DNA from: Takakia lepidozioides
Taxonomy: Eukaryota > Plantae > Bryophyta
Direction: 5' to 3'
Assembly: GCA_030704615.1 (NCBI GenBank)
Contig: CM060733.1
Span: 42,904,001-42,968,000, forward strand
DNA length: 64,000 nt
The notes below the pieces were generated by a model. That model was not told where the DNA came from. It worked only from the letters and a program-made list of their open reading frames with translations, and searched no databases. Shown in pieces: positions 1 through 58,145 of the stretch. Numbering within the stretch: the first letter of the stretch is position 1; the number at the start of each line of letters is the position of its first letter. The position numbers were made by a program, and so were the translations under genes.

Positions 1-67
1 CCCTTAAACTGCAACAGGTGCCCACCCGTGTCACTATTAGATTAGTACTAGAGCCGTATAGTGTCAC

Positions 68-1616
68 GTGGAGGAGGTGCACATTGTGAGTGTCATTACG
101 GAGTTACCCAAGGGTTTTGAGGGGAGTACGGCTACAGGCAGTAACAGTGAGAGTGGGTTCACAAGACGAGGTATTCGGTTCAGACCACCTTCACCGCCAC
201 CCTTAATTACTGTAGAGTCAGACACAGACTCAGAGGCTTCATCAACAGGTGTGCACTTTCATTCGCCATTGTTGTGGGACGACATGGAGGAGATGTATGG
301 AGCTACCAAGGGGCCTTGTAGGTACTCTGGAGCTGTGGGCACAATCGAGTTGGATGACTTTATCCAGGAGTTCGACAGCTGGTGTGATTTGCAGCAGATG
401 CGCAATCCACAGCTATTCACCCCATTCATGGCGTGGAAAGGACTGTTCCAGCATTTGGAAGGCCCGCCTATGGACGATTACCACGAGTTCAGGCGAGGAC
501 ATGAAGCAGAGATTGAGGAGTGGAGGATGTATTGGTCACCTGACTACGTCTCCATTACTCGAGGCACGACGCGACCAGTAGCTGCATCAGTACCAATAGC
601 TCCCACTGCCAGCACTAGTAGTGGAGCAAGTAGTGCTGGTACTTCTGTAGGTGGTACCAGTTCAAAAGGTGCTACTACTCCTCCTGCCACTACTACAACA
701 CATGTGCCTAGATTCAACCCGGTGGTGGAGTTCTTCCAGGAGTTGTGGATGAACTACCAAGGTGTACGGACAGAGAAGCTGCGAAGTTTGCAAGACTTCC
801 AGTGCAAACCCAGTGAGAGCCTGCGAGAGGCGTACACTCCTATGAGGCGCTTGATAAGTGTGACCCAAGGGGTTACTGAAGCTCAGGCAATCCAGTTTTG
901 GTATGGAATTCTGGACAAGGAGCTCAAGAGAGGGTGCGAGATGCAACCTTGTTACAAGCAGCCCAACCCACATTAGCAGATGTGTTTCTGCTGGCTGAGC
1001 GGATTGAGCTCAACATGGTGGAGGAGCGAGTTGTCACCATTGGATTTGGCAAGGACATGCCTACACGAGGCGCAGCTGCCAGCCCACAGGCACAAGGTAC
1101 TGCCCAGCAGCGTGGTCAGGAGGGCAAGGTTTCCCAACCCAAGTTCCATGGAGCTTACAGGGGACCTCAGGTGCAGAGGCCCGTGGCATCTTTTGCAGGC
1201 CAACAGCAACCAGGGGTGATATGTTGGACATGTGGAGGACCCATGTCAAGAGAGATTGCCCAGAGAGTGTCAGAAGGCCGGCACAAGCACAGCATGCACA
1301 GTTGCAGTGTGGGCATTGTGGCAAGTATGGGCATGGAGATGCCCAGTGTTATGACTTGCATCCTGAGTTGCGCCCAGGGCAGTTCCAAGGGAACAATGGT
1401 GGCCGGGGGCGAGGTGGACCAGCCCAGAGAGGACGAGTTGGTCGGGCACGAGGTGCAGGCCAAGGGCAAGCTCAACATGGCCAAGGACGCGGAGGTCAGG
1501 GTGTTGATCAAGGCATGGCCAACCGGCTTCAGCAGCTAGAGCAGAGGCTCGCTGCCATGGCTATAGCTCAGGCGGTTACCGGCTCCCAGGCGGGATGGTC
1601 CACCTCCTGCTCCTGA
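68..1616 (+). pseudogene. gag with two zinc knuckles, split over three frames
   Basis: ORFs 68-976, 898-1539 and 1221-1616. Knuckles CWTCGGP/HVKRDC (across a frameshift near 1240) and CGHCGKYGHGDAQC, followed by an RG-rich tail. Confidence 0.8.
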
Positions 1617-2199
1617 GGGAGGAGATATGGGAGACATGGGATTTATGTGCGGAGCAGCACTACCACTAGAGCAGGTGGAGTCTGCTGCAGCCGTGACTCG
1701 AGGAGCAGCACGAGTTCCTGAACCACGAGGTGCAGAGGTGGAATTGGATCCACAGCGTGGGGAGGCAAGCCGTCAGGCGAGGCTTCCTCAGTCATTCACA
1801 TTGGCGGAGACTGTATCGACGCCATCCATGGCACCTAGTTCTCGCCCAACTGTTCCCGAGGCGGAGGTTACTATGCCATTGGGGAGAGCTACACATGCAA
1901 CATTGACTCCTGCTGCCAAGGCTAGTGCGGCCGGTGTGTTGTTGGGGGCAGCCACCTCTGTGTGTCAAGCCCCACTGTTCTCGGCAACCATGATTGCGAC
2001 GCCGGGAGTGAGACCAGCTGCAGTGTTCAGACTAGCGGCAATACTTTGTGAGAGTGGGGAGGTCACTTCATCTTCTGCGGGGTTAGTGGAAGGTGTAGTG
2101 GCAGAGGGATCCTCGGATTTGAGGGTCAAGACTGCCACGGCAGCGCCCTGGCAAGCTACAGCTGCCAGATTGACGAAGCTGCCAGCTAGACCAGCCTTT

Positions 2200-2640
2200 G
2201 AGCGCGCCACGGTGACACCTGGAGTTGTCTTGTTAGACAAACAGGGAGGCATTTTCACTTTGAGTGGACCGGCAGCAAGAGAGTACCGGCCACTGCGGGT
2301 CTTGTTGCACTCGGGAGCCCAGCCACTGATGTTGGGCAGAGCTGCTATTGCAGGTTTGGGCCTCATGGAGGCGGATATGGAGCCTTGTCCTTTCCAGATA
2401 CAGACATCTCTGGGAGGATCAGAGCAGGGCGCGGGGCATGAAACGGCATCAGTTGGCTATTAGACAGCAGCCGGATCATCCTGTAGATGGCTCAGTGATG
2501 CGAGCCAAAGCCATTGTGACAGACGCGGTCTCTTACGATGTCCTCGTTGGTGGAGCTGTGTTATACCCCATGGGCTTCACCCTGGACTTCTGGGAGGAGT
2601 TAGCATTCTACAGGCCTGGATGGCAGTCAGGGGATGGTCG
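2200..2640 (+). pseudogene. retropepsin-like aspartic protease domain
   Basis: RVLLHSGAQPL at ~2296-2328 (LLDSGA motif with catalytic D read as H, codon CAC at 2308) and YDVLVG at ~2534 after a frameshift. Confidence 0.7.
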
Positions 2641-3000
2641 CCGTGCACAGCTCCCTGTGACATTCATTGGGGGTATTGCAGCTGCCCAGCGGGGCAAGAT
2701 ACCAACACTAGCTGCCTTCACAGCTACAGTTAGCTGGCCTGGAGAGTTGCTGGAAGGCAATGCCCATGCAGAAGATGTGCCACCTCCAGCAGAGCAGGAT
2801 GACATACATGGTATGGCGGAGTTGCCTGCCATGGTTGCTCACAGCATGTGGGGTACGAGCAAGGATTGCAGCAAGGTTGCTGAGACGGGTTGGTGTAACA
2901 AGCCTGGGTAGAGGCTTTTGTACCGTCAGGAGAGGAGGAGAGTGCGGGTATTGCACCAGGACCACCTCAGTTGTCACCATTGGATACCACACCTATTGTG

Positions 3001-3990
3001 TGGCAGTATCCGAATGAAGGCATTTGCCTTCTGGACTTGTTTGGTGGGATCAGCACCGGATTGGCTGCTGTGCTACAGGCAGGTGTACGAGTTCGACGTT
3101 ACCTGTATGTGGAGAAGGATGAGACTACATGACTCGTCTCACTGCGCCATGTTGCTCGGATGCTGCAGCAGTACCCTGAGTTGTTGCCGGTGTCTGCAGT
3201 TCGTGGATATCAGCAGGCCTTGCCAGCAGACATTGCGTTGCTGGGGGCGCAGGATTTGGAGCGGGTTGGCTCCATTGATCTGGTAGTGGCAGGTTGGCCC
3301 TGCCAAGGGCATTCATCAGCCGGGCATGGCAATGGATTACTAGACTCGAGGACGGGTTTGTTTTGGGAGATGGTGCGGATTTTGCGCCACTTGCAGCTTC
3401 ATCAAGCTCCAACATACATCTTGGAGAATGTGCCGCTGATGGGTGATTCTCGGGCCAGGGTGATGGCCAGTGTGTATCAAGTCTGGTCATGGCTTGGGTC
3501 AGCAGTGTTGCTGGATGCAGCTGCAGTGGGGTCACGGGCTCATCGTCCACGACTATGGTGGACTAACTTGATGCCACCCGCACTGCTCAAGCGTGCACTT
3601 GATGGGGGTGCAACGGCCAGCACACCTCACCGTGGATGGCATTTTGGACACAGGAAGGCAGTCTCAACGTGTGAGACACGATGACCGTTCGCCTTTGGCA
3701 GTGGTCAACAGGGTGGGTCAACCACGAGCAGCATTATCTACCCTGCTCAGCTTCCCAGGATCCCATGCTTTTCGGGATGGTGGACCTGGCCTCCTGTGGG
3801 ATGCTCAGTTACAGCAGTTAGTGGAGCCTAATGCCGACGAGCGAGAGCGGGCTATGGGGTTTTCCACTGGGACCACGGCGGTGCCTTCTCTTTCTGAGGC
3901 ATCACGTCGTCAGGTGTTGGGGCAAGCAATGGATCTCAATTGCTTGACCTGGATTGTCAGCTTGGCTATGGCTGAGCAACGTAGAGTGCG
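3001..3990 (+). pseudogene. DNMT3-like DNA (cytosine-5) methyltransferase domain embedded in the Gypsy pol
   Basis: Motif I LDLFGGISTG (3031-3060), II YVEKD, IV GWPCQG (PC at 3298-3303), VI ILENV (ENV 3424-3432), VIII AHRPRLWWTNL (~3538-3570), IX/X ERERAMGF...RRQVLGQAMD (~3838-3935). Interrupted by TGA at 3130 and a frameshift in a G-run near 3605. Confidence 0.9.
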
Positions 3991-4421
3991 GAGTGCACTT
4001 CCCTTGACGGTCTCTCTGCCTACCGAGACGGTACAGGCAGCGAGTGGGGGCGAGCCGGTGAGGACCACGGGGTGTAGACATCCATGGCACACGTGGGAGG
4101 TGCTCGAGGTTCAGAGGGAGTTGGCAGCCAAGGCAGCTGTGATGGATGAGGTTGGGGATTCTTCTCGGGTTGAGGAGGTTCTCAATGATGAGATGATGGG
4201 GCACGATGAGCCTTGTCATTGACTGAGCAGGAAGGGGGTACTGCTCAAGAGGTTGCAGCATAGCAACCACGGGACGCGTCCTCTACCTCTAAGCCCACTG
4301 GACTTAAGGTTGCAGTTACGGAGGACAATTGGGAGCCTGACATTGGACCCATTGTCACGGAGGAGAGAGACGACGTATACGGCGGTTCCTGAGGGCTTAC
4401 AGGAATTGCTTTGCCTTCAAT

Positions 4422-5270
4422 TTGAAGGACTTGGGAGCACTGAAGGGTCAAGAGATCCGTATTGAGTTGGCCACTGACACGCCAATCTTTCGGAGACCCT
4501 ATAGATACAGTGACATGGAGAGGTCTTTGATTCAGATGAGGACTCAAGATCTCTGGGAGGCAGGTTTGGTGGAGCTCTCTGGTGGAGAGTATGCTTCAGC
4601 CACAGTGATGTCAGCTAAGAAGGATGTCTATGGCAATTGGACGGAGAGACGTATGTGCGGTGATTACCAGCCTGTAAATTGTCAGACCAAGTCCGATAGG
4701 TATGCCATGCCAACACCAGAGGAGATCTTTGATGCCATTGGGCATTCCAAGGTCTTTAGCACGTTGGATTTACGATCCGGATATCACCAGTTGCCGATCA
4801 AGGAGGCGGATAAGCAAAAGACGGCATTCTGGGGGATCAATGAGCACGGGAAGGATTGCCTATACCAGTGGCGGTTCTTACCATTTGGGCTTAAAAACGC
4901 TCCCGCTGAGTTTCAAAGAGTCATGGACAGGATTCTAGCAGGGGTGGAGTTTGCTCGGTGCTACATAGATGACATCATCATCTTTAGTGCTACGGTGGAG
5001 GAGCATGAGAGACACCTTCAGGGGGTATTTGAGCGCTTAAGGACGCACGGATTGAAGTTACATCCGGGCAAGTGCAAGTTTTTCCACAACCATATTGAGT
5101 ATCTGGGTCACATGATATATCCTGGAGGATTGGGGGTACAGCAGACTAAGGTAGAGTCCATTGCACAGGTTCCACGCCCCACGGATGTGAGCCAAGTTCG
5201 AGCTTTCATGGGGTTAGCAAACATTATAGACGGTTTGTTAAGGGATTTAGTGCCATTGCAAAGGCTCTAA
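4422..5270 (+). CDS. Gypsy reverse transcriptase
   Basis: RMCGDY, LDLRSGYHQ, KTAF, LPFGLKNAP, YIDD (4962-4973), KCKF, YLGH. Confidence 0.95.
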   Translation: MKDLGALKGQEIRIELATDTPIFRRPYRYSDMERSLIQMRTQDLWEAGLVELSGGEYASATVMSAKKDVYGNWTERRMCGDYQPVNCQTKSDRYAMPTPEEIFDAIGHSKVFSTLDLRSGYHQLPIKEADKQKTAFWGINEHGKDCLYQWRFLPFGLKNAPAEFQRVMDRILAGVEFARCYIDDIIIFSATVEEHERHLQGVFERLRTHGLKLHPGKCKFFHNHIEYLGHMIYPGGLGVQQTKVESIAQVPRPTDVSQVRAFMGLANIIDGLLRDLVPLQRL

Positions 5271-5389
5271 CCAAGCTGACCAAGGTGGACCAGGTGTGGC
5301 AGTGGGAAGATGAGCAAGAACAAGCTTTTCAAGAGCTCAAGGCGAGGTTGACCTCGGCGCCCATCTTGAGACGACCTATCAGGGGGCGT

Positions 5390-5760
5390 CCTTTAGCTGC
5401 ATACAGATTGGAGCATGCTGGGGCTTGGAGCGGTGCTCACACAGGTGGATGATGAGGGGAGAGAGTTCGTAGTGGCTTATGCTAGCCGCTCGAACAATGC
5501 TGCAGAGTCTAAGTATAGCTCATATGAGGGAGAATGCTTAGCTGCAGTGTGGGCCGTGGCACACTTTAGGTGCTATCTATACGGCAATCTCTTCACCCTT
5601 GTCACGGGTCACCAACCACTCAAGTGGTTGATGGAGTCAGACAAGCTTACGGGGAAGCTTGCACGGTGGGCACTCATCCTTCAAGAGTATGACTTTCAGG
5701 TGGTGCATCGACCGGGTTTGGTCAATCGCAATGCAGATGGGTTGAGTCGCAATCCATGCA
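5390..5760 (+). CDS. Gypsy RNase H domain
   Basis: TDWSMLGLGAVLTQ...VVAYASR...YSSYEGECLA...HQPLKW...RWAL.LQEYDF...ADGLSR. Confidence 0.9.
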
Positions 5761-5959
5761 CGAGCCAACAGGATGACACTGGAGCTCGGTGGCATGGTGA
5801 GACGGACGAGGAGATGGTGCCCGGATGGCATGCATCTGCATTTCTGTGTATCTTGGCAGCGGAAGGCCAGGTTGGACCTGCAACTGGAATGACTGTAGAT
5901 CAAGTGTCTGGGACCCTGAGGCCAGCAATGAGCAAGGTGGCGCCAAAGATATACATGAG

Positions 5960-7072
5960 GATTCAGTTGTGTTGGACTACCTTCGCACTGGAGACACGGT
6001 AGCCACTGTGACTGCCAAGGAGAGGGATCGGATCCTACAACGAGCCAAGAGGTTCAGGTGGGAGGGGACACACCTGCTCCGAGTGTGGGAGGATGGTCGA
6101 GTGAGGATTGTGCCTCACCCAACACAGCGGGCACGGTTAGTGCGGCATGCCCATGAGGAGTTGGGGCATTTTGGGGTGCGACGCACTCATAGTCTACTGC
6201 AGGGGCAGTATTGGCGGCGTGGTATGCACACAGAGGTGCAACAATTTGTGGCTAGGTGCATGGTGTGTGACAGGGTGCGTGCTTCATTCAACGCCCCTAC
6301 TCCACAATTGCACCCTCTTCCGATCATGGGATTGGGCTACAGGTGGAGTCTTGACTTCGCAGGGCCGTTGCCACTGACCATGCGCCACAACAAGTACGTG
6401 TTGGTGATGGTGGAGCACTTCTCCAAGTGGATTGAATTGGTTCCATTGCCTGATAAGGCTAGTGAGGGAGCTGCGTATGCATTCCTGGATTGTGTGCTTA
6501 GCCGATTCGGTGCTCCAGCTGAGGTACTCACGGACCAAGGGAGAGAGTTCTTGGGGGAGTTTCAGGCTTTGTGTGACAAGGCCTTGATAGACCACCGCAC
6601 CACTTCTCGGGATCATCCTGAGGCCGATGGCTTGGCAGAGAGAGTTGTTCAGACAGTAAAGAGGGGTTTGCGCAAGTATGGCTTGCAGAAGGGACACCTA
6701 GGAGATTGGGACCTTCAGTTACCCTGGTTAGCCATGGGCTACAGGTTCAGCAAGCAAGCATCACTTGCCTCCTTCTCACCATACTTTCTTCTCTTTGGCC
6801 GAGAGCCGGATTTGCCTACATCCATTCGCAGAGAAGCTGCTACAGTTCTTAACCTTGACGATCCGGACGTGTGGGCACGTGCATGTGAGCAGCGTGCAGA
6901 GTTGTTCAAGAGAGTCATGCCCATGGCTTTCGAGAACCTTGCCATTGCACAACACCGTGATACGTTGAGGTATGCTACCATACGTGGTGGGGCTATCGTC
7001 CTGGGGTTCGGAGATTCAACCCTGGTGACTATGTCTATCTGCAGCAGACTGCTCCTACGACCCTGGATGTGA
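5960..7072 (+). CDS. integrase (HHCC zinc finger plus DDE core)
   Basis: HEELGH...CMVC; WSLDFAGP, LTDQGREF, GLAERVVQTVK. Confidence 0.93.
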   Translation, partial: DSVVLDYLRTGDTVATVTAKERDRILQRAKRFRWEGTHLLRVWEDGRVRIVPHPTQRARLVRHAHEELGHFGVRRTHSLLQGQYWRRGMHTEVQQFVARCMVCDRVRASFNAPTPQLHPLPIMGLGYRWSLDFAGPLPLTMRHNKYVLVMVEHFSKWIELVPLPDKASEGAAYAFLDCVLSRFGAPAEVLTDQGREFLGEFQALCDKALIDHRTTSRDHPEADGLAERVVQTVKRGLRKYGLQKGHLGDWDLQLPWLAMGYRFSKQASLASFSPYFLLFGREPDLPTSIRREAATVLNLDDPDVWARACEQRAELFKRVMPMAFENLAIAQHRDTLRYATIRGGAIVLGFGDSTLVTMSICSRLLLRPWM

Positions 7073-7392
7073 CTGCAGGACGTGTTATTTTGAGGGTTCG
7101 AGAGGTCTTGCCCTCAGGCGTCTTGGTCTTGGAGGGTCGGGATGGCATAATTTGGAAGGACCATGTGCGTAATTGTGCGCTATGTCACCTTCCGAATGTC
7201 GATGGCAGGATTGACCCAAACCTGGCAGTGGTATCTGCAGGTTTGAGGTGCATGTTGTGTGGGTCTGCTAAAGGGGCAGCCACCATGCTGGTGTGTGATC
7301 GATGCTCTAGAGGTTGGCATATGGGATGCTTGACTCCACCTCTTGAGATGGTTCCGGATGGGGATTGGTTATGTCCACAATGCATTGGATAG
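7069..7392 (+). CDS. integrase C-terminal extension ending in a PHD finger
   Basis: CMLC-x11-CDRC-x4-HMGC-x14-CPQC is a C4HC3 PHD with LTPPL...P.GDW. The same frame extends upstream as GYRPGVRRFNPGDYVYL to a frameshift near 6990. Confidence 0.9.
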   Translation: MTAGRVILRVREVLPSGVLVLEGRDGIIWKDHVRNCALCHLPNVDGRIDPNLAVVSAGLRCMLCGSAKGAATMLVCDRCSRGWHMGCLTPPLEMVPDGDWLCPQCIG

Positions 7393-7650
7393 TGGGAGTG
7401 GATACAACCATGGAAGGCTAACAAGCAACGCAAGGCCCAGCTACAGGAGACCTTGAATACACGAAGTCCTGGCTCAAGTTCACAGATTGCAAGACGGCGA
7501 CTAACGATGGGCTACTCTTGTACCCGGCCTCTTGGTCTATAGAGTTTGAATACGATAGGGACAGTGATAGAGGACTTAGTACGGCTATGGCTATTACGTC
7601 TTGTAGCTATCTGGAGGTGGAGGGACCTATCCACCAGCTAGGGGGGCGAT

Positions 7651-7735
7651 TGTGGTAGACTACTTTATTGTGCATATATGTGTGGTGTGGTTTGGACAAC
7701 GATGTAGTTGTGTAGCGATATGTATGCGCACGACA
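7651..7735 (+). repeat. 85-bp TG...CA unit after the PPT (3' LTR, or the start of it)
   Basis: Begins TGTGGT and ends ACGACA (imperfect terminal inverted repeat). Near-identical copy at 8095-8179. Confidence 0.7.
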
Positions 7736-7737
7736 GC

Positions 7738-8093
7738 TGTCAAGTTAAATAAGCACAGTGTGAAAACAGCTAGCATAAAACTAGTTATTTGTATTTAACA
7801 CTTGGATTTAGGTCAAGTGTTAAATCAGGTGTCAAGTTTAGTTTGACACCTGGTCCGTCTTATCTTCACGAGAGCGGCAGTCGCGCAGCTCATCTCTCTC
7901 GAGTTGAGCCTGCGCGACCGAGCTCCTGCATCGTTTAGGTTTGAGTGTGCTTATGTAGGGGTACATGTTGTTGTGGGGTGGAGTCCCCATAGCTTGGGGT
8001 GCTCCTGGCTCGACTTCTGTTTCAATGAGTGATAGCGATGGATTTCATATTTCTTGTGTTGGGAGTGTGTGTCCTTTTTAGCTTTGTTTATCA
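7738..8093 (+). repeat. 356-bp hairpin-rich repeat, copy 1
   Basis: Near-identical reverse complement of 16452-16807. Confidence 0.9.
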
Positions 8094-8094
8094 T

Positions 8095-8179
8095 TGTGGT
8101 AGACTACTTTATTGTGCATATATGTGTGGTGTGGTTTGGACAGCGATGTAGTTGTGTAGCGATATGTATGCGCACGACA
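8095..8179 (+). repeat. second copy of the 85-bp unit
   Basis: Direct repeat of 7651-7735 with one visible mismatch (acaacg vs acagcg). Confidence 0.85.
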
Positions 8180-8312
8180 ATAGCATGGGCGACGACGATG
8201 AGGTGGAGGACAGTTCGGCGGAAATTGCACCTCCATCTGCAGAGTCTCTCCAAAAGGTGCGCAAACGGCACAAACCCACTGCGTATGAGGTGAGTTCTAC
8301 CCCTACTTCTGT

Positions 8313-9490
8313 TCATGTTCTATGGGCGTTGAATTCTCCTGAAACTGAAACTGGGATGCACATATCCATAAAGTTGTTCAATCGGATCTCGTAGTATAGA
8401 GGGCAGTAGAAGAAGAAGTGTTCTTCAGTTTCAATTTCCTTGCTGCGCCCTATGCAAGCTGGACATAGGCGGTCCTCCCGTTGCAGGTTTTCCCATCTGC
8501 CAGTCTCTATCCGTAGGTTGTGGGAACCCACCCTGAACTGCCCCAATGCCCTCAGGAGGGAAGGAGCTAAGGGTGCTGAAAGGTAATTTGGTCTCAAGAT
8601 TCTATCATCGCGGAGCACCAAGAATGTCTCTCGATAGAAGTGGAGCTTTGTTGTGAGATTGGGTAGCATCCAAGTTCTCTTCACATGTAATTCCATAAGC
8701 TCTCTCCGAATGAGTCTGTTGCGGTCATGTGTGGATGTGATGTCCACCTCATCTGGGTTCATTGGTAATAGGAAAGTAGTAGAAAGTCCGTTACGTTGAA
8801 ATAAACTGTCCACTCGAGCATACCAGGAGTTCCCGAAACCTGCAGCTTTGAGCCTCATAGATGTTGTGAGGGCCCTTGCCACTAGCCCTTTGGGTGAAGG
8901 GCCTACAATCTATTCCTCACAGATTGTAAGCCTGAACTGTGCCTCGGATTGCAATGGTACACATGCGAACTCTGCACCTAGGATCTGAGAGGGAGTTGTG
9001 CTCCTGGCGCCAAGCATTGCTTGGAGAAAAGATGACTGTAACGGTTCCAAAATCTTTTCCCACCAAGAGACAGGGACACCAGGTGCCCAGAACTCACAAC
9101 CATAGATGGTAGCAGGGCTGACGACGGTGTCAAACAGACACTTTTTGGTCGGGGGATGCCGCATATGTATTTGCTTGCATTTGGCGTGAAGGCGGACGGA
9201 GGCCGCCTTACCTTTAGTCAATCTGTCCAAGGCAGTGGTTGCAAAGTGAAACTTGGGGGAGTGGATAACCAGACCTAGGTACCGGTATGATTTGACAATC
9301 TCAATTTCTTGCTGGTTGAAGATGAATCTACGATCAGCCTGGCCATTGAAGACCATGATCTTGGTCTTGCTAAGATTGACTTGCATCCCAAAGTCTTTGC
9401 AGAACTGTTCCAAAATTTAGAGATGGCGTTGCAGAAAGACCGGGGATTGTGCCAAAAGGGCAACATCATCAGCGTAGAGGAGATGTGATT
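8313..9490 (-). mobile_element. 5'-truncated non-LTR retrotransposon, family B (RT C-terminus plus CCHC finger)
   Basis: LLYADDVA (~9458-9482), KTKIMVF, YRYLG, HNLRIETGRW...CPAC...ETEEHFFFYC. Confidence 0.85.
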
Positions 9491-9499
9491 GAAGTTAGG

Positions 9500-10640
9500 C
9501 AGAAATGTGCAGTGGTAGCAATCAACGACAGAGGAGAGGGAGGAAGTGATCTTAAGTGGCAATGGGGTAGCCAAGAGATCCCGTCCTCCCTTCCTACACT
9601 TACCTAGGCGTTGAGTTTTCCTCCAATTGTAATTGGGATGCACATATACGGAAAATTGTTCAAACTGGCAAGGGCAAAGCTCTGGGGCTCACTAAATTTT
9701 TCCACTGCAGAGGGGTCATCTCTGAGGTTAAGAAAACCATGCTTTGTTGCGTTATTAGACCTGCCTTGGAGTACGGATCTGCTATATGGGTTGATAACTC
9801 CAACCAGGCTAAGTCTCTAGAATCCATTCAAGTGGGGGTGCTTAAGGAGTATATGTCAGCATGGAGAAAACAGCCAATGTGGCTGTTCGGGGGTGAGTTT
9901 GGCATCCCATCCTTAAGCTCCTGACGAGATGAATTCAAGGTCAGATGGTGGGGTCAGCTGCAACATATGCCCAACACCAGATATCCTAAGTTGATCAACT
10001 CTAAATCTTGGAAACAGGACCGCCCTGTCAAACAGACTAAGTCCTGGCAGAAGAGAGTAGAAAATATTCTCAAGGACCTGGACCTGGATCCGCAAGTCTT
10101 GACCCTGCTGGATAAATCTGCCTTACAGGCTGTAGTGTCTGAAGCCATGTCTGTTGCCATGAGATTGTCTGATAAAAATGAAGTTAGGCAGAGAACTTCC
10201 CTGAACTTGTTTCCAGTCAGTGACATGGGGGTGGACATCTTGGATGACCTGAAGGGTCCACCCACTCTCGGCACTAGACTGAAATTTAAACTCAGGGCAG
10301 GAAGCCTACCTTTGAACAGCAAACAAAAGCAGATCGGAAAGGGAGAGTGCAATTGTCCGTTGTGTGGGCAATCTGAGGACAGTATTCATTTTCTGATGCG
10401 CTGTCGGGGTCTCTCACCAAAGAGACGCTCTCTTCAATTCTATCAAGGGAATTGTGCCTGTACCCCTGTTTACCAACTTTGAAAGACTCGAGGCTAAGCC
10501 AAAAGCCCAGGCCCTCCTGAGGCCTAGTTTTTGGGCAAATCACACACAGCAGATTGATGCTTGTGTGAAGGGATTTCTAGAGGATATCTGGAAAACCCGG
10601 ATCAATGCTTTATATGAAGGTAAGTCTTACTACCAACGTC
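9500..10640 (+). mobile_element. 5'-truncated LINE, family A
   Basis: High identity to the reverse complement of ~59650-60920; CPLCGQSEDSIHFL finger. Confidence 0.9.
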
Positions 10641-10679
10641 ATAGGGTCATTGTCTGACTCACTGCCCGGGGTGCTATCA

Positions 10680-11791: not shown

Positions 11792-12460
11792 TCATGTTGC
11801 AGACAGTAAGGTTAGTTTCACCTGCATGGGCGCAGAAGTACTTCCCCCAACGACCCCATCCTCTCCCACATTCAAGCTGCCAGTCGGGGTCAGCTTCCGC
11901 GTGCTTGTGAAGACACGCACATCCTTGGAGCAAAACCAATCTTGGCAGTAGGGCCAGACTGTTTCTAAAAGGTACTCTGAATCGGGCCCCTCACTGATAT
12001 TGCTAGTGACATCAAACGACAATGGATGGACCATGTTCAAAGGGGAGTTCCCCCTCCCCTTGTGTGGTGAATCATCCACTAGGAGGGTGTTGGATTCGTT
12101 AAATCCAGAAAATTCCGACCACACCCTCGACAGTCTCTTCTGTAAGTTCTGTACGGCAGGCCCTTTTGTGGGGTGTGGCTCTGTCAAGGGGTCACACTCC
12201 TCTTGTGACCACACAAAGAGGGGAGAACCCTTGACCCCCTGCATCACCACTTTGAAGATGTCTGCAACATTCCCCTTGGAAGCACAGGACCATATCCTAA
12301 CGTAGAAATGTCGGAAGAGAAGGTTTAAAAACTCGCAGACCTGGGGCCTTGGGAAAACATACTTGTTGGTGGTCAACACCCATGGCCAATGACGCCTCGG
12401 GTTGGGCTGAAAGTTAGGAATAGAGTGGCACAGGATCCCGTTCAGGTCTAGAACAATTAG
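11792..12460 (-). pseudogene. FCP1/NIF-type HAD phosphatase domain (DLNG subtype)
   Basis: Extending ORF 11792-12379 upstream in frame gives LIVLDLNGILCH (from 12460), then RPQVCEFL...IWSCA...FVWSQEEC...KRLSRVW...NTLLVDDSPHK. Confidence 0.8.
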
Positions 12461-13332
12461 TTTCGACTATCTATGAAAGGAGCTTTTGAAGGGGTGTCAC
12501 GGGGTCTCACCTCAGTGGGTTGGGAGACAACAGTCACCCTGGAGGGCAAAGTTTCGGTCCCCCTGCAGCCTGGACCAGGCAAACTACCACCCTCTCCCCC
12601 TACAGCTTCCCCTTTTCCCTTGATAGAATGAGCAATGACCCCCCCCATCGTCCATGTCATCCCCACCAACTCGCTGGACCTCTCCCTCTTCAACGAGTGG
12701 ACCCTGCCCCCCACTGTGAATATCATCAACAACAGGCTGGACCTCTGTCACATCCCTACCCACTACAATTACTTCCTCCTTCTCAGGTACAATGGTCGCA
12801 GCAGGGGGGTCTTCCATAATGCCACCCGTCACACCCCCTTTTTGCCTCATCATGAGTTCCACTATCTTCTTCAGTTGTGCTTCCATTCCCCTCTCCCGCT
12901 CCGCAGAGAGAGCCGCAAGCCTCTCCAGGGCCCCGATGCGGGCTGCCATTGAGTTCCCCGCTCCCTACGCATACAAACACCCACCCGTACTGTTAAAAAC
13001 CAGAAGAAGAGGCCGAATGTGCAGGATTTCAGGCATTCAGAGATGGCTGGGTTTGGCATAACACCCCTCGTGTACCATGCGTGGGGCCCCACATACCCAC
13101 CAAATCTTAGTACAACAACAGATTCATGAATGGAAACCGGACTTCAAAACATACCTGGCTCAAAACAGACTCTGATGGGGTGCCAGTCGCATAGTTCTTT
13201 TGCTCCGCGCCGAGCTCGGACAGTGACGGGCTCCGCGCTTTGCGTCTTTTCTGTATTTGCCCATCCACACACGGTCAGTACAAAATGCCAGGAGCATATG
13301 GACAAAGCATTGCCCTGCATATCACATAACAA

Positions 13333-14252: not shown

Positions 14253-16451
14253 ACAAGGAGTACATCCACAGATTTGTCTCTCATATAGACCAGCACAGGT
14301 TCTAGAAACAGAATTGTGGATCTTTCATGACACACTCACACTCTAAAAATTCCATAGATTTTTAGCAGAGTCCTAGATAGGTAGATATCCCCTTTCTGCA
14401 GCTATCCCCCCAAAAACTGAGTCAAACAGAGCCCATATGACAAAGATATGACCAATTAGGCTCTAAATCATTCGAATTAGATCAAAAAGGTTTTTTTTTT
14501 TTTTTTTAACACCAAAACGTTCTCGCCATTAAAAACTGTTACCATGTTATCTACGGGTTGATCTGTCGGATAAGTGATATCCACACTTGTGCCCTCCGTT
14601 CCCTGCAGTTTCCCGATTTTCCATCTGAACAGCCCGTCTCGAGTTCTCCACACATGGGCGGGTCTTGGGGAATTACGATGAATACAGTGGCACGCTGAAG
14701 CTCAACAGCAGGTAGACAATGTGTCCGTTAATGTAAAGAGCCTGGCAGATCAACAGTTTGAAATGATCAATGCTTCATCTCCTGTTATGCCATTCGCATC
14801 AGCCTGCCGTAGATTGTCTGTCAACCAATATCCGAGTTCAATTGTCCAAGCAGAAATCTACTAGAAATCTACCAACCGGCTACTGATTCCATAAATACTG
14901 GCAACTCCCATTCCGGATCTGTACTCAATGGATCAGTATAGAGTGGCTGCCCTTAGGGCGCGCTTCATCCCAACCAGGGTAATCTGCACTGAAGCCGAGA
15001 TGACACTTGAAGCGGCTGCTTCCACAATGCTCCCTCTTTGGTGCATTCATCGTGCTAATCTAGCACTGCCCAAACCACGCCACAACTCTCGTTGGTGCAG
15101 GAAGTATGGCTGCCGCATTGCAGGTCTCGGGTCAGGCTCTCCATATCCTAGGCGTGCATATTGCTGCTGATATTGGGGCTGCCTTCAAATTGACTGCCAA
15201 TAGGCCCGAACCTGTTTCATTAAAACCGAGACTGTCGAATTTCCGTCCAAAAAATGCTAGTGGGTATTTGCCATGACAGGCACCTGACAATGTATGAAAG
15301 CCCACCATAAAATCCGAATATCTTCAATCAGAAGTTGGAATTCGTAATGGCCTCCATTCTGGTCTGTTTCATCGCCCCTTTGGCCTGCTTCATGATCAGC
15401 TCCTACGCTAACTCAATTTTCCCACGGATTGTAATAGATCCAACTCTTTTCTTAGAGTTCAAGAGGGTTCAAAAGAGGGGCCTCTTCGGCTAGCTGACAA
15501 CAGGCATGTGCCCATTGATACTCCGGTCAAGAGTAACACCTGAAAAGCTGAATTTGGTAGATCCTAAGTACTTTACATTCCAGTTTTCTCGTTAAGTAAC
15601 CTGCAGTACTCATACATAATCGACTAACCGTAATAAGGAGCTTAAGGAAGTCCTGGTGGATCAGGAGGCGGGGGCGAGGGAGGTGATGGACAGCACCTTA
15701 ATTACGCACTTGCTAGAAAATCTAGCCTGACCCCGTCCATCCATTTGCTTGCTTCCTCGTGATGTGCAGCCAGACAACCTCACATCAACCAGCCCACAAC
15801 CACTCCTTCATGGTGGCTGGACTATAGTCGCACACCGACTTCCCAACCATTGCTAGTAACCATTCCACATGAAAGCCAACGACGGCACAATCTGCCTTCA
15901 TGCCAGCCTGTCCCTCCTCGCTGACCAAGAAAACCAACGATAGCCAGCCAACTTCTCAACTCGGCCTTTACTGATTGCACACCATGATATATGCCATGAA
16001 CAACTTCACCAAATCGTTTGTCATCAGTACCGATATACCATTGGCACGACGACTTGTAGACATGAGCCCATCAACCAGTCCAACACCTTGGCTGCTCACT
16101 ATGTGCAGGTCTGAAACCATCAGTCTGCTCAGGAATTACCTATAGCATGGTATTTTTATCTCTGCAGCTGAAGTCGAAGACCACGGTCCACCTACTCGCG
16201 TAACCAGCTGCACCTCCGTTTCTAACCACCAAGACAATGAAGGCTTGCATCCCAGCCTTGCGAGACAACAATAATGCTGATCGTTTCACCATGCTCGGCT
16301 CTCAATCTGCCGCTCAGCCAGTGACCGTTATAAAGGGAGAATACCCATGCACTTTTGTGTTACCGCTTTCAACACACACAAAATCCACAAGTGCTAAAAA
16401 CTAATTAAGCTCACATCTTGCACTCACAGATGCAAACTGATCTCTCTCGAG

Positions 16452-16807
16452 TGATAAACAAAGCTAAAAATGACACACACTCCCAACACAAGAAATATGA
16501 AATCCATCGCTATCACTCATTGAAACAGAAGTCGAGCCAGGAGCACCCCAAGCTATGGGGACTCCACCCCACAACAACCTGTACCCCTACATAAGCACAC
16601 TCAAACCTAAACGATGCAGGAGCTCGGTCGCGCAGGCTCAACTCGAGAGAGATGAGCCACGCGACCGCCGCTCTCGTGAAGATAAGGCCGTTCAGGTGTC
16701 AAACTAAACTTGACACCTGATTTAACACTTGACCTAAATCCAAGTGTTAAATACAAATAACTAGTTTTATGCTAGCTGTTTTCACACTGTGCTTATTTAA
16801 CTTGACA
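16452..16807 (-). repeat. 356-bp hairpin-rich repeat, copy 2 (inverted)
   Basis: tgataaacaaagc...atttaacttgaca is the reverse complement of 7738-8093. Confidence 0.9.
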
Positions 16808-17634
16808 CTATAGTCGCTTGTGTCAAAATCCAAACTGGAAGACCGCCCACTGCTCTGCCTTCCCTCTCGCACCGATGCCATCTGTACCACATTCAGTCGA
16901 GCCAGGCGGGGGCTCCTTCGCACCGCGGGGCTGGAATGTGCACAAGTGGGAGGAGGTGATGCTGCCTCGGCGGTCGACCGCTTCTTACTAGGCGTGGACA
17001 TAGACCATGACAAAGATGAAGACGAGCGAGGACATAGACCATGAGCAAGACAAAGACGAGCGAGGAAGACCAAGACATGCAAAGGAGGAAAGAAAGACAA
17101 GGAGGGGAGTGTGATCACGCACCCCCCGAGCTCAAGGTGAAGATCCGGCTGTTGTTGATTTCAAATATGAACACGTGTCGTGCATCCGACACTATGGCCT
17201 TTTCGACTTTGAGACGTTAAACCCTAAACCACTTACAGTCCTCCAGACAACTAGATGTAGTGATTCACACAACTGACATTTGGTTGGCCTGTTATGCAGG
17301 CTTGTTCTGTAATCTCCAGTGGACATCATACAGTTTCTTTGTTTCTTTCATTTTTTGTAATGCTTGAACAGTTCATATCCTCAATGTCTTATTGCGGTCC
17401 AGGCTTCAAGCAAATGAGAGGTAGTCCTGGTAGGATGGTCAATGTCCTTAAAAGCGGCCTTGTCTATTATCCATCCAAAAACTAAAGGTCTCATCTATCA
17501 TGGTTAATATATGCTTGGATAAGAAAATGACTCGGTATGTCTTCTTTTTCACAATCACGGGGAGGGTTACCTCGACTCACTAGCTGATCTCTTAGCACAA
17601 TTGACACCAAGCCCTTGACACGGTTTTCATGTGC

Positions 17635-17750
17635 ATGTCAGCATGCTCCAAAACAGCCAATGTGGCTGTTCGGGGCGAGTTTGGCATTCGTTCCTTAAGC
17701 TCCCGACGACATAAATTCAAGGTCAGATGGTGGGGCCAGTTGCAACAATG
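17635..17750 (+). mobile_element. short internal fragment of LINE family A
   Basis: Matches 9855-9965 and the reverse complement of ~60450-60560. Confidence 0.8.
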
Positions 17751-17899
17751 AACCGATATTAGCCTTGAGTAGTTCTCTGACTCTTTGTGGGCCCTTCTAT
17801 GGTTATTTGTTTGTTGTTCTACTCCTTGTGGCCCTTTAGGAATCCCACAGACGTGATACACATATCTCTTTCCTCACTTTCGGTCCTTCACTGACTACC

Positions 17900-18530
17900 A
17901 GAAATGTCACACCGTATGTCTGCATCTGAAACTTTTCACCTTTGAGACAACATTCTGGAGCACGCTCTGCTAGCTTCACATTGTCATGTATTCTGCAGGC
18001 ACCAAGTAAAGCCCTACACTAAAGCATCTGGTTTAATTGGCATTCTGTTGATGAAATTCTCCGCCTCATCCAAGCGCCCTGCACGGCCAAGAAGGTCAAC
18101 CATGCAGCCAAAATGTTTTCCTGTTGGAATGATTCTATTATCACACACAACAGATTGATGCTTGTGTGAAGGGTTTTCTAGAGGATATCTGGAAAACCCG
18201 GATTAATTCCTTATATGATGGTAAGTCTTACTACCACCGTCAGCCCCTGACGGAGGTAGGTTCTGTTCCTTTTGTTCCTGCTCAAACTGGGCGCAGGGTC
18301 AATGGCCACAAGGCTACGGCATACAACGTCTTATGAGTACAATCTATAATCTCTACTCATAGAATGGAAATAGTGTTGTCCTTCATCTACTAGGCCCATA
18401 TGGCTGCATGCAGACAAAACTGCAATGAGTGCAACATCATTTGGCTTCACCCCTTGCGGTTTCAAAACTTGGTTGAAAAGTTGCAGAGCATCTTTGCCAT
18501 GCCCTTGCTGAGAATATCCGAAGACCTGCT
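17900..18530 (-). pseudogene. PLS/E-class PPR pseudogene interrupted by a LINE tail
   Basis: GYSQQGHGKDAL...VKPND...VLSACSHMGLVDEG...SMSRDY, then HFGCMVDLLGRAGRLDEAENFI..MPIKP...LLGACRIH. Confidence 0.85.
18143..18342 (+). mobile_element. 3' tail of LINE family A
   Basis: Matches the reverse complement of 59545-59750. Flanked by TCTATTATC (18134-18142) and TCTATAATC (18343-18351), a probable TSD. Confidence 0.85.
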
Positions 18531-19096
18531 TGCCCTCTTCTACAGCTGGGCACAGGGAGTGTCGTTGAGGCTGAAAAGGGGAAATTTGACCAGGTCATAT
18601 CCGTTTGTGTTACTTCGAAGGTGTGGGCCAGCCTGCCAGAAGGTCAAAACAGGTGCATGCTGACATATGAAAGTCTGGCGTCGTGGAGATTGTTGGCTGT
18701 GAGGTGGGGATGGGGTTATCATCTTTCCTGGTAAATGAAGATATGATTGACATATCTCCTCTCCCATAAACTGTCACATTTCCTATAGGAAGTTCTTGTG
18801 ACGCCCTTGACATGCTGTTGATGTGAATGAAAGCAGGCTGCAGTAGCAACAATGGAGAATTCAGGGTGTTTGGATTGGGGCAGAGCATACCATGGAAGAG
18901 AACAAGGGGCCCAATAGTTCGTGCAGTTGGGGGAGTTGATGTATGTACTTCCCCACACGGCCTTTGCCTCTCTTCACCATCTGTACCGAAGGTGCATAGA
19001 TGGAACAAATCTCCAGTCTTTTGGTGTGCTCTTGTAATTTTGATATGCCCATAGACCCACTTCTCTCTCCTGTCTGTCTTGAGTTCCCCAACAAAA

Positions 19097-22000
19097 ATGA
19101 GTTCCCCTCGCCCATGCGGAGGACTTCCAATTAATCACCCCTATAGACAGAACAACCGGGATGACAGGTTGTGGGAAAGAGAAGTGGCACGTGCCCGAGC
19201 CCTTGGGCTTTCAAGGATGCCATGCCCATGTGAACGTTGTTTGGGCACTACAAGTAGATCTGAGGACGGTGTGCGCACACATCTCCTTCACCACAAAAGA
19301 CATGAAGCATTTCGGGTGTGGATTGGAGATGGACCTGCAGACGAAGACGATGCGGAGTGGGCACAATTGGACAATGCACACCCCCGAGGGAGCCATACAG
19401 ACAGGCCAGACGAGGACTATGTCATGGGTGCAGGACAGGAACCAGGCATGGATGGAGGGGTGGAGATTACTCGAATGTTGCAGGAAGCATTCCACATCAT
19501 GGACGATGCTGAAGAGGGGGACGGCGCTGCGACAACTGGGGATGGTGATGACGCAGGAAATGAAGGCATTCACGTGGGGGAAGGCGTGGAAGGAGGTGGA
19601 GATGGAAATGAGAATTCTGCACACATGACACTAGAAGAAGCATGTGTGCCACTGTACGAGGGATGCAAATCCACAAAGCTTGCTGCCAGCATGCTGTTGA
19701 TGAACCTGTGCACAACCCACGGTGTGTCAGACCATTTTGTGGACGAGTTGTTCTCTTTGCTTCGGCTGAACTTGCTTCCACAACCAAATGAAATGCCAAA
19801 AAGCTGTCACATGGCCAACAAAATGATTGGGAAGCTCGGCCTCAACTACGTGAAAATACATGCATGTCCAAAAACATGTACTTTTCAGAAGAGAGTACAA
19901 GGACGCTATGGAGTGCCCCAAATGCGGTGCAGCCCGATACCATGATGTGGGCAGGTTACAACAGCCAGCCAAGGTGTTGAGGCACTTTCCCCGCATCCCC
20001 CGTCTATTACGAATGTACAAATGCAAGACCATTAGTGAGCTCATGACTTGGCATTCCAGGAATGCCTCAAACGATGGTTTGGTAAGGCATGTCCCAGATT
20101 GGAAGCATATAGATGCAACTTGGCCCGATTTCGCCGAGGACCCACGCAATGTGCGATTGGCTGTATCTACGGATGGAGTAAACCCAAACGGATCAAAGAG
20201 TTGCACATGGTCCACATGGCCCGTGCAGTTGGTGGCATACAACCTGCCACCATGGTTGACAACAAAGAAATTCTTTGTCATGTTGTCTCTCTTGATTCCA
20301 GGCAAGGAGTCCGTGACAAATGCAAACATAGATGTGTATTTGCAACCATTGATTGAAGAGCTACAGGAACTATGGATTGGAGTTGAAGCTTACGACATTT
20401 TGAAACCAGTAGGGCAACGGAGTTTCACCCTCCGTGCCATACTCATGTGGTCAATCCACGATTTCCCCGCATATGGCCTTGTTGCGGGTTGCAAGACAAA
20501 GGGCTACAAAGGGTGCCCCATTTGTGGGCCCTATGTGGATTCACGGCACTCAAAGCCATTAGGGAAGACAATATACATGGGGCATCGACGTTACCTTGCA
20601 AGAAACCACCCCTACCAACGAGCAGGCCGGCACTTCAATGGATGTGTTGAAAAGAGAATGGCACCAAATGTTGTGACACCGGAGGAGACATTGCAATTTG
20701 CAAAGGAGAAAGAGGCGTTCATGGAGATTGGAGGGAGAGAAGGAAGTAGTGCGGATCCAGCCATGTCGCACGGGGTGAAGCGCCGGACAATCCTTTGGGA
20801 TTTGCCATACTGGAAGGTGCATGAATCCCCCCCCCCCCAATTCACTCACTTTCTTTCACATTGTGCTTCCTGGAATTACCTTTACTGTCAGGAGTCCTTC
20901 CACCAACTCCTAAGTCAGTGTAACTACTATGCAGTAGATGTTGAAGTCGTACACCTCACCGTGTAGAGGATCGTGCAGTTGTTGAAAGCAGAATGTAGTA
21001 ACATGGACAACTTCTGCCACATATTCTACTATTTTTGCCCATAGAACTTGGTCTCATGGGAGGACATTTGGCATTTCAGAACCTCTTGCAGCGGTACCTC
21101 CTGGACCCCATGCATTGTGAGAAGAACTTCTACGAGAACATTCTGAAGACTATCTTTGGGGAGAAGGATACGATAAACGTACAAAAGAACATGGAGATTG
21201 AAGGGAACGGTCACATCTGTGGCTAAGACCTGATCCAAATAGACCAGGCAAAGTGCTCATGCCAGCAGCATCATACGTCCTGACCAAATCAGAGCAAGAG
21301 GAATTTTTGAAGACATTGGGAGCCATGAAAGTGCCAACCGGATTCTCGGGTGCTTTCCAAAAGCATGCCATAAACAAGAAATGGTCGGGGATGAAGTCAC
21401 ATGATCTACACGTGATGATGCAGCAGATTTTGCCAGTGTGCATTCGGGGTACGATGGCGTCGGGTCCTCGAACAGCCATAATGCGTGTAAGTCGAGTGTT
21501 TAGGAAGATTTGTGCGAAGGTGTGGGATCCGAGGGACATTACATCGCTGCATGAGGATGTGGCTGTGACCCTATGTTTGCTGGAGAAAGAATTCCCTCCA
21601 TCATTCTTTGACGTCATGACGCACTTGCTAATGCATCTTGTAGAGGAGCTGCATGTGTGTGGGCCCGTAGCCAGCCGTTGGATGTACCCCATGGAGAGGT
21701 ACATCAAGGATCTGAAGGGGTATGTACGCAACATGGCACGGCCAGAGGGGAGTATGGCGGAGGGCTACATCCGCGACGAAGCCCTGGGCTTCATGACAGA
21801 GTATATGTCTTCATTTGATGCAATACAACGACGGGTGTGGGACGAGAACGAGGAAGAAGGAGTTGTAGGCGAGGTCCTAGAAGGTGGTGGAACAAAGCGT
21901 GCCATGAGCCCGCGCCTTCGGGATGTGGCACATGATTATGTACTGAACAACACAACAACCATGACACCATGGAGACAGTGGGTGTAAACTTTACATCCCT

Positions 22001-23155
22001 CCTGTGCTATTCTTAATGGTCTTTGTATGCATGAATTACATATATATTGTCACAAGTCATCAGCCACTATGGGAGTGGGATCGTGTACTAACAGGGTGCT
22101 TCAGACGACAACAGAGGGTGTTTCGTAGTTGGTGTTGTTGCTTGCAAGTGATCATGAAGTAGGCTGCATCACTACAATGTGCTTGAAAGGACACACTCTA
22201 CATGTGGCATGCATGTACAGTACGGTGTTGGTCAGGGGGACTGAGTTGCAGCTTCTATTTGGTTTCTGCCAGAAAATACGCAGCAGAGAAGGTCCGCCTG
22301 AAAACGGAACGGAGAGCATTTGCAAAAGCATGGTGGAGGGGCGGTCGTAGGCGCAGATCCCCGGTGGAGTACCCGACAACAATGGAGGAGCTGCAGCCCT
22401 TTACAGTGTGGGTCAGATCTGCAATTGCAGTGTACGCATCAGAGAACGACCCAGATGAGGGCATGGTGAGTCTGTCATTCCCCCCAGGGCTGATTGCCAC
22501 TTCGTACCGGTCAATGAAAGCATATGGCAATCACTATAGAGTGGACGATGCCAACACCAGCCTCCTGGTGACTTATGACAGCGGAGTGGCATCATTTTTT
22601 GAACAAGAGAGTAGGAGCTGTGCACGAGATCGGAATCCAATTTCATGCCATGTGCAATATGTAGGAGTGATCAAAGAGATCCTTAAACTAGACTATGGTC
22701 TTGTGAAGCCAATTCTATTCCGTTGTTCTTGGGTAAAAGCCAATATGGTAGGAGAGAATGCCACCATGAAACGGGATGAGTACGGGTTCCTCCTTGCTGA
22801 TTTCAGAAAAATGCTACCACAAGATGAAGAGCCATTCATCTTCCCATCGCAAGTTGAGCAAGTTTTCTTTTCAGATGACATCCATGCGCCGGGATGGAAG
22901 GTGGTTCTTCACAAGGACCCCCGGGCCAAACGAGTCATTGCCGACGTCCATGATCTGGACCTAGGGGAGAATGCCGACCACGAGGGTCTGAGGGAACCAC
23001 AAAATCTACCAGATACGGCCGAACCAGTCTCTTTGGAAGGAGCAGTTACCTTTAATGAGGAAGACATTCCAGGGTTGGTAATTACCGCCAGGCAAATTGC
23101 AGATGTGGGTAGTGAAGGGGAAGATTATTTGGATACGGATAGTGAGCCCAGCTGA
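19097..23155 (+). mobile_element. CACTA/En-Spm TnpD transposase gene (Transposase_21, DUF4218- and DUF4216-like regions), with introns and frameshifts
   Basis: CPCERC; IHACP; RNVRLAVSTDGVNP; STWPV; LIPG; DVYLQPLIEEL; IHDFPAYG; DPMHCEKN; GMKSHD; RWMYPMER; RPEGSMAEGY; DSGV...YVGVIKEI...FRCSWV...EPFIFPSQVEQVFF. Confidence 0.92.
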
Positions 23156-29689: not shown

Positions 29690-30700
29690 CATATATGAAT
29701 GGGAAAACGAGTGCTTTGGTAAGGCGAGTGATTGATACTAATTCGGTTGAACTAGATGTTGTGTCTCGAAATGCCTTAACTGTAGAATATACGCAACATG
29801 GGTGTGGGATTGAGACTTTCGATACTTATGAACAAATGGTGCGGTAAGGGTTTCAGCCCAACCACATCATGTCGGTTTTCATTTGCAATGTGTGGGCAAG
29901 TTGTGCGGCCTTCGAGAAGGGCAAAGATATCCATGATGACATCTTCAATTTTCTGAATCTTTCCATACTTGACATGTACCCCAAATGTGGGTGCCAACGA
30001 AGATGCAAATCGAGTGTTTGACACTATGGCTGAATTAGACATTGTGTCTTCGAGTGCCATGACTGTATGATATGCCCAACCGCGTGGATGTAGGATTGAA
30101 GCTTTGAAGATCTACAAGCCAATGGTGGTAAGGATTTCAGCTCAACCACATCATGCATGTTGGTTTGCATTTGTAACATGTTGACAAACTAGACGAACCT
30201 AGATAATGACATAAAAAAACTCCCACGATGACATTCTCAGAGCCGACATTGGACCACCTATCATTTTTAACCCTGGTCTGCTTGACATGTATGCCAAATG
30301 TGAGTGCAAAAAGGTGCAAAGTAAGTCGTTGACAATGTGGCTGAATTAGATGTTGCACGTTTGGGAGTACCATGACTATAGGATATACACAACATGGGTG
30401 TGTGGATCAAGGCTTGGATATCTACAAGGAAATGGCACGTTAAGGGCTTCAGCCCAACTTGCACATCATGTTGGGTTTCAGTTGTAATATAATGTGGCCC
30501 TCATTTGTAGTATGTGGGCAAGTTGGGCAGCCCTGGATAAGAGCAAAGATGTCCATGGTGACAGTGTTAAAGCTCGAATTGCACCACTTGTAATTTTGAA
30601 TCCTACCCCGCTTGACATTTATGCCAAATTTAGGTGCAATAAGGATGCAAAGCGAGTATTTGACAATATGGCTGAACCATATGTTATAGGAGCATGTTAG
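29690..30700 (+). pseudogene. highly degenerate PLS-class PPR pseudogene
   Basis: Repeated remnants DMYPKCG / DMYAKC / DIYAKF...DAKRVFDNMAE, GFQPNHI, A.EKGKDIH. Confidence 0.75.
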
Positions 30701-34332: not shown

Positions 34333-34479
34333 ATGGCGGATCCGCCCAGCGTTGGCCTACTGTTTGCTGCTTTGTGTTTGAAGCTTGATACACAGATAGT
34401 GACGCCAGAAAGGTTGTTCGCAACGATTTCAGCAATAGCTGGCCAGAGGATAGAGGACGCGGAGGGGGAAGCATGCTGA
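34333..34479 (+). promoter_or_regulatory. 48-aa upstream ORF overlapping the CCR4 start codon
   Basis: MADPPSVGLL...VTPER...AGQRIEDAEGEAC*; ends gcATGcTGA; conserved in the paralogue. Confidence 0.65.
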
Positions 34480-58074: not shown

Positions 58075-58145
58075 TTTCCAAATTATGATAGACTGGGTAG
58101 ACTTCTGCTCATGTTCGGTTCTACCGGAAACCGGATCTAACCAGA

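Follow-up and report, generated by a model that had tools for sequence, protein, structure and literature searches.

A DNMT3-like cytosine methyltransferase carried by a Ty3/Gypsy retrotransposon family of the moss Takakia lepidozioides and other bryophytes

The window analysed here, a stretch of 64,000 nucleotides of the Takakia lepidozioides genome (contig CM060733.1, positions 42,904,001 to 42,968,000), contains on its + strand a Ty3/Gypsy retrotransposon whose 5' end falls outside the window. Using tblastn of Marchantia P0010 and of P0404 together with motif inspection, we delimited a gag region at 284-1590 with two zinc-knuckle-like motifs (1222-1239 and 1308-1349), which is interrupted by frame changes and had no significant match in the Pfam scan of the window pieces, and an aspartic protease region at 2221-2848 (motif at 2299-2322). 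The active-site aspartate of the protease, present as LLDSGA in relatives, is lost in the window copy, and a frame change lies near 2430. Downstream follow a DNMT3-like C5 cytosine methyltransferase (3019-3979), a stop codon in the context TAG CAA CCA (4261-4269), a Ty3/Gypsy-type reverse transcriptase (RT; 4341-5270, PF00078, E 1.7e-31, YIDD at 4962-4973) with 4ol8 and the Ty3-G polyprotein as best PDB matches (E about 3e-40), RNase H (5397-5750, PF17917, E 4.3e-33), an integrase (6101-6985, PF00665, PF17921 and motifs) with an HHCC finger and D-D-E residues at 6347, 6527 and 6629, and, 3' of the integrase, a PHD finger (7249-7383, PF00628, E 1.8e-11) whose best PDB matches are the PHDs of CHD4, PHF12 and KDM5B/KDM5A. 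The order protease-RT-RNase H-integrase, the Ty3-like RT, the DDE integrase and, in sister loci, a short target duplication are those of Ty3/Gypsy, and likening to the published description of Klebsormidium elements makes this an element of the KnitGypsy-Dnmt3 kind. Contigs of the same family differ from the window copy by indels at 930, 1239, 1576, 4357, 5222, 5394, 5910 and 6988, among others; the window copy is dead at many sites beyond the methyltransferase.

Other features share the window. Two CCR4-like deadenylase genes, at 33809-40912 (+) and 44245-51551 (-), are arranged as an extended inverted duplication, many segments of which are 81-95% alike; in a comparison of this single gene restricted to best matches, the exon at 34977-35846 matched Marchantia paleacea at 78%, Sphagnum at 75% and Calypogeia at 74%, and vascular plants at 70% or less among the named matches, which places the host among the bryophytes. 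Degenerate repeats spaced by about 300 nt (29763-30686) look PPR-gene-like by eye, as ORFs at 19055-23152 (+) are by eye reminiscent of a CACTA-type transposase. At 60363-63355 (-) lies a LINE-like element whose ORFs resemble an endonuclease and an RT, and near-identical LINE-related fragments lie at 8316-10641, 17631-18345 and 57824-60914. Flanked by transposon fragments, a 224-aa ORF at 11795-12466 (-) begins with LIVLDLNGIL and resembles phosphatases of the FCP1/NIF type.

The sequence-only reading of this DNA had described an intronless C5 methyltransferase with DNMT3 affinity between protease and RT, and each of these points held. Motifs I (LDLFGGISTG, 3031-3060), II (YLYVEKD, 3100-3120), IV (GWPCQ, 3292-3306), VI (ILENV, 3418-3432), VIII (AHRPRLWWTNL, 3538-3570), IX (ERERAMG, 3839-3859) and X (RRQVLGQAMD, 3905-3934) occur in canonical order on the + strand without introns. 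The segment 3133-3681 matched PF00145 with an E value of 3.4e-14 and 53.4 bits (cut-off 22), so that the absence of any C5-methyltransferase hit, named beforehand as a refutation, was not seen. As also reported before, the catalytic Cys is present in this copy, and the frame is broken by a stop at 3130-3132 and a frame change at 3604-3607. When compared with PDB sequences, the window piece matched DNMT3A best (E 7e-6), followed by M.HhaI (4e-4) and DRM2 (0.8); a profile built from 23 relatives gave DNMT3A at 7e-16, DRM at 4e-9 and M.HaeIII at 2e-6, with DNMT2 far lower than DNMT3A. The predicted fold of the intact relative P0001 (pLDDT 87.6) resembled DNMT3A in Foldseek (E 4e-19), and 35 of 35 among the matches listed were DNMT3. 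A DRM-type enzyme was rejected, as the motifs run canonically from I to X and are not circularly permuted. The domain is thus DNMT3-like by sequence, profile and fold. It should be noted that phage enzymes are also close to the profile (227 records, best E 1e-15 among the matches listed) and that virus-rich clusters ranked at the top of a protein-atlas search with the domain. Because of these phage enzymes, and because our tree was built without host DNMT3, we state its descent as DNMT3-like and not as host capture. SAM-dependent methylation of cytosine in DNA is the predicted activity.

The same reading had placed the methyltransferase inside pol. The domain does precede RT in the element, but a conserved stop codon divides the two. 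This stop lies exactly 96 codons past motif X in 39 of the 72 motif-X matches (loci and window together), and RT continues in the same frame across it in 32 of the 47 copies with an RT anchor. When readable distinct copies were collected with a pattern that itself demanded the CAAC context and a subsequent ATG or GTG, 44 of 45 had a stop before the CAA-type sequence (TAG 33, TAA 11) and none had CAG or CAA at that codon; for comparison, no column of the methyltransferase alignment exceeded 28% stops. In the window, TAG CAA CCA at 4261, in a frame running into RT, fits exactly the plant-virus readthrough motif UAG-CAR-YYA, as given in the partial text of PMC3542737. Most metagenome copies read TAG CAA CCC, one base from that consensus, and have an ATG three codons later, which the window copy lacks. 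No special RNA fold was detected downstream of the stop (z -0.11 and -0.45). Intact P0404 terminates 92 codons and Marchantia P0010 94 codons beyond motif X; P0036, P0181, P0183 and P0341 continue past the methyltransferase into RT. Given the conserved stop, the main product is probably gag-protease-DNMT, and RT-integrase-PHD would be made by readthrough.

The 3' end of the element has an unusual repeat order, since a polypurine-tract-like G run (7640-7648), found at the same position in sister loci, is followed directly by a first copy of repeat B (7649-7735, 99% identical to 8093-8179), by repeat A (7738-8093, TG...CA) and by the terminal copy of B (8093-8179), with the element terminus CA at 8179. 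The arrangement A-coding-B-A-B was found in three metagenome loci (L019, L060 and L062, the last being the same locus as L064), and in L008 likewise up to the contig end. L016, L042 and L078 have the form A-coding-B; these copies may be assembly collapses, later recombinants or dead ends. A plain layout with two LTRs flanking the coding region was not encountered among these loci, which had A-coding-B-A-B or A-coding-B. The B/A joint is a palindrome, GACA-GC-TGTC (7732-7741 in the window), which is a candidate internal attachment site; it recurs in L008 and L029, with variants in other loci, and the A-to-B joint of L060 has about 20 additional bases, as expected of end-joined circles. All five independent elements in which both ends could be read had a 4-bp target duplication, a count that omits L019 (decayed 5' end) and L064 (same locus as L062); three of the five were matched by script and the other two were read directly from the sequence. 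The repeat junctions and the 4-bp duplications suggest that a circular cDNA may have been integrated via an internal site. Split direct repeats are also a mark of DIRS/Ngaro elements, and the window element has them; membership in that group was rejected on account of the rve integrase and the target duplications, and no match to a tyrosine recombinase was obtained in the 12 + strand pieces scanned.

A second copy of repeat A, 97% identical to the first, lies on the - strand at 16440-16807 and is probably the 5' terminus of a further element that has been truncated; the sequence beyond it had no match among the metagenome loci. This copy is followed by a primer-binding-site-like sequence of 12 nt complementary to a site inside A (7892-7903 in the window element), whereas random 12-mers matched in 0 of 20,000 cases. 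Complements to A of 9-11 nt, differing in sequence, follow the 5' A in only 6 of 12 loci. Such pairing of the sequence after A with the inside of A resembles self-priming of the Tf1 type. Repeat A of the metagenome family (5996-6334 in L062) contains a hairpin, one arm of which is identical to the stretch following the 5' A, and this hairpin could possibly act as a switch for self-priming.

Relatives of the element were found in land plants and algae. Among 50 protein matches to the methyltransferase piece, 14 came from Marchantia (gene models of two annotation versions, which possibly overlap), 4 from Calypogeia, 2 from Sphagnum and 4 from Closterium, which supports an occurrence in land plants. 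Copies stand unlabelled in the Marchantia gene models Mp4g09160, Mp8g17980 and Mp2g26090. A metagenome scan confirmed 160 stretches, of which 80 were kept as loci and 64 are distinct; together with the bryophyte gene models, these copies show that sister elements do carry the domain; a lack of it in them had been named as a refutation by the sequence-only reading. In the 80 loci, all recruited by the methyltransferase and many on contigs that stop early, the downstream counts were 58 for RT, 41 for RNase H, 35 for integrase and 23 for a PHD finger, and protease lay upstream in 47. The main metagenome family resembles the Sphagnum protein P0027 by eye. L065, L067, L073, L074 and L080 represent subfamilies that are further removed (40-50% identity); a 900-nt internal duplication is present in L065 and L067, and about 3 kb separate DNMT and RT in L073, L074 and L080. 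Exact peptide patterns, which are sensitive to close relatives only, detected no close relative in IMG/VR or in prokaryote genomes.

With the methyltransferase profile, 492 clusters were retrieved at an E value of 1e-30 or below, and two domain orders were seen among 198 proteins, protease-DNMT-RT and RT-RNase H-DNMT-integrase-PHD. The named carriers of the latter are the chlorophytes Chromochloris, Haematococcus and Hariotina, and P0043, P0185, P0288, P0370 and others form a large group of uninterrupted polyproteins with the methyltransferase between RNase H and integrase, plus a PHD finger. We found no mention of this group in the papers covered. A quick tree with 97 rows grouped the window copy with Marchantia, Calypogeia and Sphagnum in one clade of 15 rows (SH-aLRT 100). 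The 63 rows with the methyltransferase after RT formed one clade both in the DNMT tree (support 0.79) and in the RT tree (0.87), and DNMT and RT distances were correlated (rho 0.52). The chlorophyte relatives have a methyltransferase of the same clade placed after RNase H. A single ancient capture fits these trees, which were built without host DNMT3 and, because they also lack DNMT-less Gypsy outgroups, do not prove it.

Comparison of the window methyltransferase with 68 loci gave pS 0.71, pN 0.20 and a dN/dS of about 0.11 (60 unsaturated pairs), a rough value because dS between window and loci approaches saturation. The corresponding dN/dS for RT was about 0.09 (12 of 47 pairs unsaturated). 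Differences between window and loci at the three codon positions were 0.30, 0.17 and 0.52. Within the metagenome loci, omega at low dS, among decayed copies, was 0.58-0.71 for DNMT and thus higher than for RT (0.37-0.55), and at dS above 1 it was 0.25 for DNMT and 0.17 for RT. The catalytic Cys is retained in 53 of 56 distinct copies. The methyltransferase is under purifying selection as a family trait, and a dN/dS near 1 across the family, which would have spoken against the earlier proposal, was not found.

The element family is abundant. The best-matching sequencing run contained 82,146 contig records over window positions 1-8200, a count made without a single-copy baseline, and the summed depth over the methyltransferase (0.76-1.08 million) was similar to that over RT (0.95-1.14 million), with no dip at the methyltransferase. 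None of the 15 contig joints listed, of 108, bypasses this domain. In a run labelled as another organism, a single contig covers 2714-7657 with 276 differences; in what may, as a guess, be an RNA run, 28 of 30 bins were covered and 3289-3836 was uncovered, a result that we weigh neither way. The ratio of observed to expected CpG was 0.50 for the element, 0.47 for the remainder of the window and 0.45 for the window LINE. CpG depletion as a mark of self-methylation was therefore rejected: the element is no more depleted than its surroundings or the LINE, and carries no self-methylation footprint.

Several systems combine a retrotransposon with a DNA methyltransferase. KnitGypsy-Dnmt3 of Klebsormidium nitens, as described in the partial text of PMC5890265, carries DNMT3 in the Gypsy pol ORF, with DIRS-like repeats and Ka/Ks under 0.2, in a species with 33 DNMT genes in all; its domain gave no methylation in yeast, a result judged inconclusive by the authors. 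That 2018 report viewed Gypsy-DNMT3 as captured within the lineage of Klebsormidium, without settling what it does there; neither Marchantia nor Sphagnum is in its species table, and PMC12344493, in the text available, restates the claim. The elements described here share with KnitGypsy-Dnmt3 the intronless DNMT3-type domain with unrearranged motifs, the purifying selection and the A-coding-B-A-B repeats. They differ by the land-plant host, by the abundance of the family and by the conserved stop, the Klebsormidium domain lying in one ORF with RT and RNase H. A PHD finger, a priming mode, a target duplication and a circle model are not named in the published KnitGypsy-Dnmt3 description, with which the comparison was made by text. 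SymbioDIRS-Dnmt3 and SymbioLINE-Dnmt of Symbiodinium are likewise retrotransposons with a C5 DNMT, the former with split repeats and de novo CG methylation in yeast (PMC5890265, partial text); DIRS elements, however, use a tyrosine recombinase, whereas the window element has a DDE integrase, a Ty3-like RT and 4-bp target duplications. The EpiLTRs and DAM-LTRs (bioRxiv 10.64898/2026.05.21.726589, partial text) are also Gypsy-like and combine a DNA methyltransferase with a chromatin reader, but with a DNMT4-sister enzyme, an adenine methylase and a chromodomain; that preprint mentions "streptophytes (Gypsy-DNMT3)" and names no land plants in the part available. The host enzymes PpDNMT3b and MpDNMT3b belong to the same class but are encoded outside retrotransposons, and host DNMT3 performs de novo CG/CHH methylation in moss (PMC6453930 and 10.1101/2021.02.12.428880, partial texts). 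Chlamydomonas Gypsy-7a_cRei has a PHD finger in its Gypsy polyprotein, and a methyltransferase is absent from its domains as listed in the available part of PMC9940879. Element-borne DNMTs are unmentioned in the partial texts of PMC5784723, PMC10952607, PMC12885004, PMC6453930 and a Marchantia 4mC preprint, and no description of a land-plant Gypsy-DNMT3 was found in the literature covered, which lay outside subscription journals and Repbase. What is new here is the conserved stop after the methyltransferase, the circular-cDNA integration suggested by the ends, and the chlorophyte relatives with the methyltransferase after RNase H.

The identity of the domain and its conservation across the family are almost certain. 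These observations are compatible with a mechanism that we regard as reasonably probable in its main outline, in which the methyltransferase would be packed into the particle at gag level and would methylate the cDNA before integration. The first frame would yield gag, protease and methyltransferase, the enzyme being likely loaded into the particle in amounts similar to those of gag, and RT-RNase H-integrase-PHD would arise by readthrough of UAG-CAA, so that the methyltransferase would exceed RT. The true LTR would be B+A, bounded by the purine tract and the primer site; priming would be independent of tRNA and would rely on pairing of the stretch that follows the 5' A with a site within A. 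A two-LTR cDNA circle could then be opened by integrase at the internal CA-nn-TG, giving A-coding-B-A-B, and the PHD finger may recognise histone H3 tails at the insertion target. Methylation of the new cDNA before integration would likely make the new copy resemble host DNA or dampen it. A more comprehensive proposal, of one ancient DNMT3-PHD Gypsy lineage across chlorophytes, charophytes and bryophytes in which bryophytes combine gag-level methyltransferase, methylation of the cDNA circle and insertion through the palindrome, is put forward tentatively and is less probable as a whole.

For the readthrough step only, RT-integrase might instead be produced from its own start codon or from a spliced or subgenomic RNA, with the methyltransferase still ending the first frame. 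The ATG after the stop in most metagenome copies and the lack of a stimulatory structure speak for this route, which we consider somewhat unlikely given that the window keeps TAG CAA CCA exactly without that ATG and that the frame is so often maintained across the stop. It is likewise unlikely, and slightly more so, that the enzyme is active inside the nucleus, where it would methylate integrated copies or target chromatin and not particle cDNA, as self-silencing that limits copy number and benefits the host. Purifying selection leaves the substrate unnamed, the element also encodes a chromatin-reading PHD finger, and host benefit is among the options in the available text of PMC5890265; fusion with gag and protease nevertheless favours particle loading, and the high abundance in the best-matching run fits strong self-limitation poorly.

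Quite improbable is a domain kept for nucleic-acid binding or protection, or for methylation of the element RNA, and not for DNA methylation. The negative yeast result with the Klebsormidium domain and the lack of additional CpG loss agree with such a role, but conserved SAM-binding and catalytic residues, a DNMT2 score far under that of DNMT3A and the CG methylation obtained in yeast with DIRS-encoded DNMT3 domains (PMC5890265, partial text) argue against it. Finally, a host DNMT3/DRM gene could have entered a single element just once, by insertion or as a processed copy, which the intronless and broken state of the domain in the window might evoke. This explanation is refuted by the sister elements and retains next to no likelihood, as dozens of copies and three named bryophyte genera have the domain in the same place with the same spacing, the DNMT and RT trees are concordant, and the motif order is canonical, unlike that of DRM.

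The conserved stop makes a concrete prediction about the dosage of the enzyme, and the end structure predicts an integrase that inserts a circle, a route which, to our knowledge, was rejected for retroviruses. If the more comprehensive proposal is true, it would be a replication route undescribed for integrase-type elements in the literature examined. Surveys of bryophytes may have included such elements among host DNMT3 genes and so overstate the number of these genes, and, with copies standing unlabelled among the gene models of Marchantia, a genetic model plant would be usable for the question of a transposon-borne silencing enzyme.
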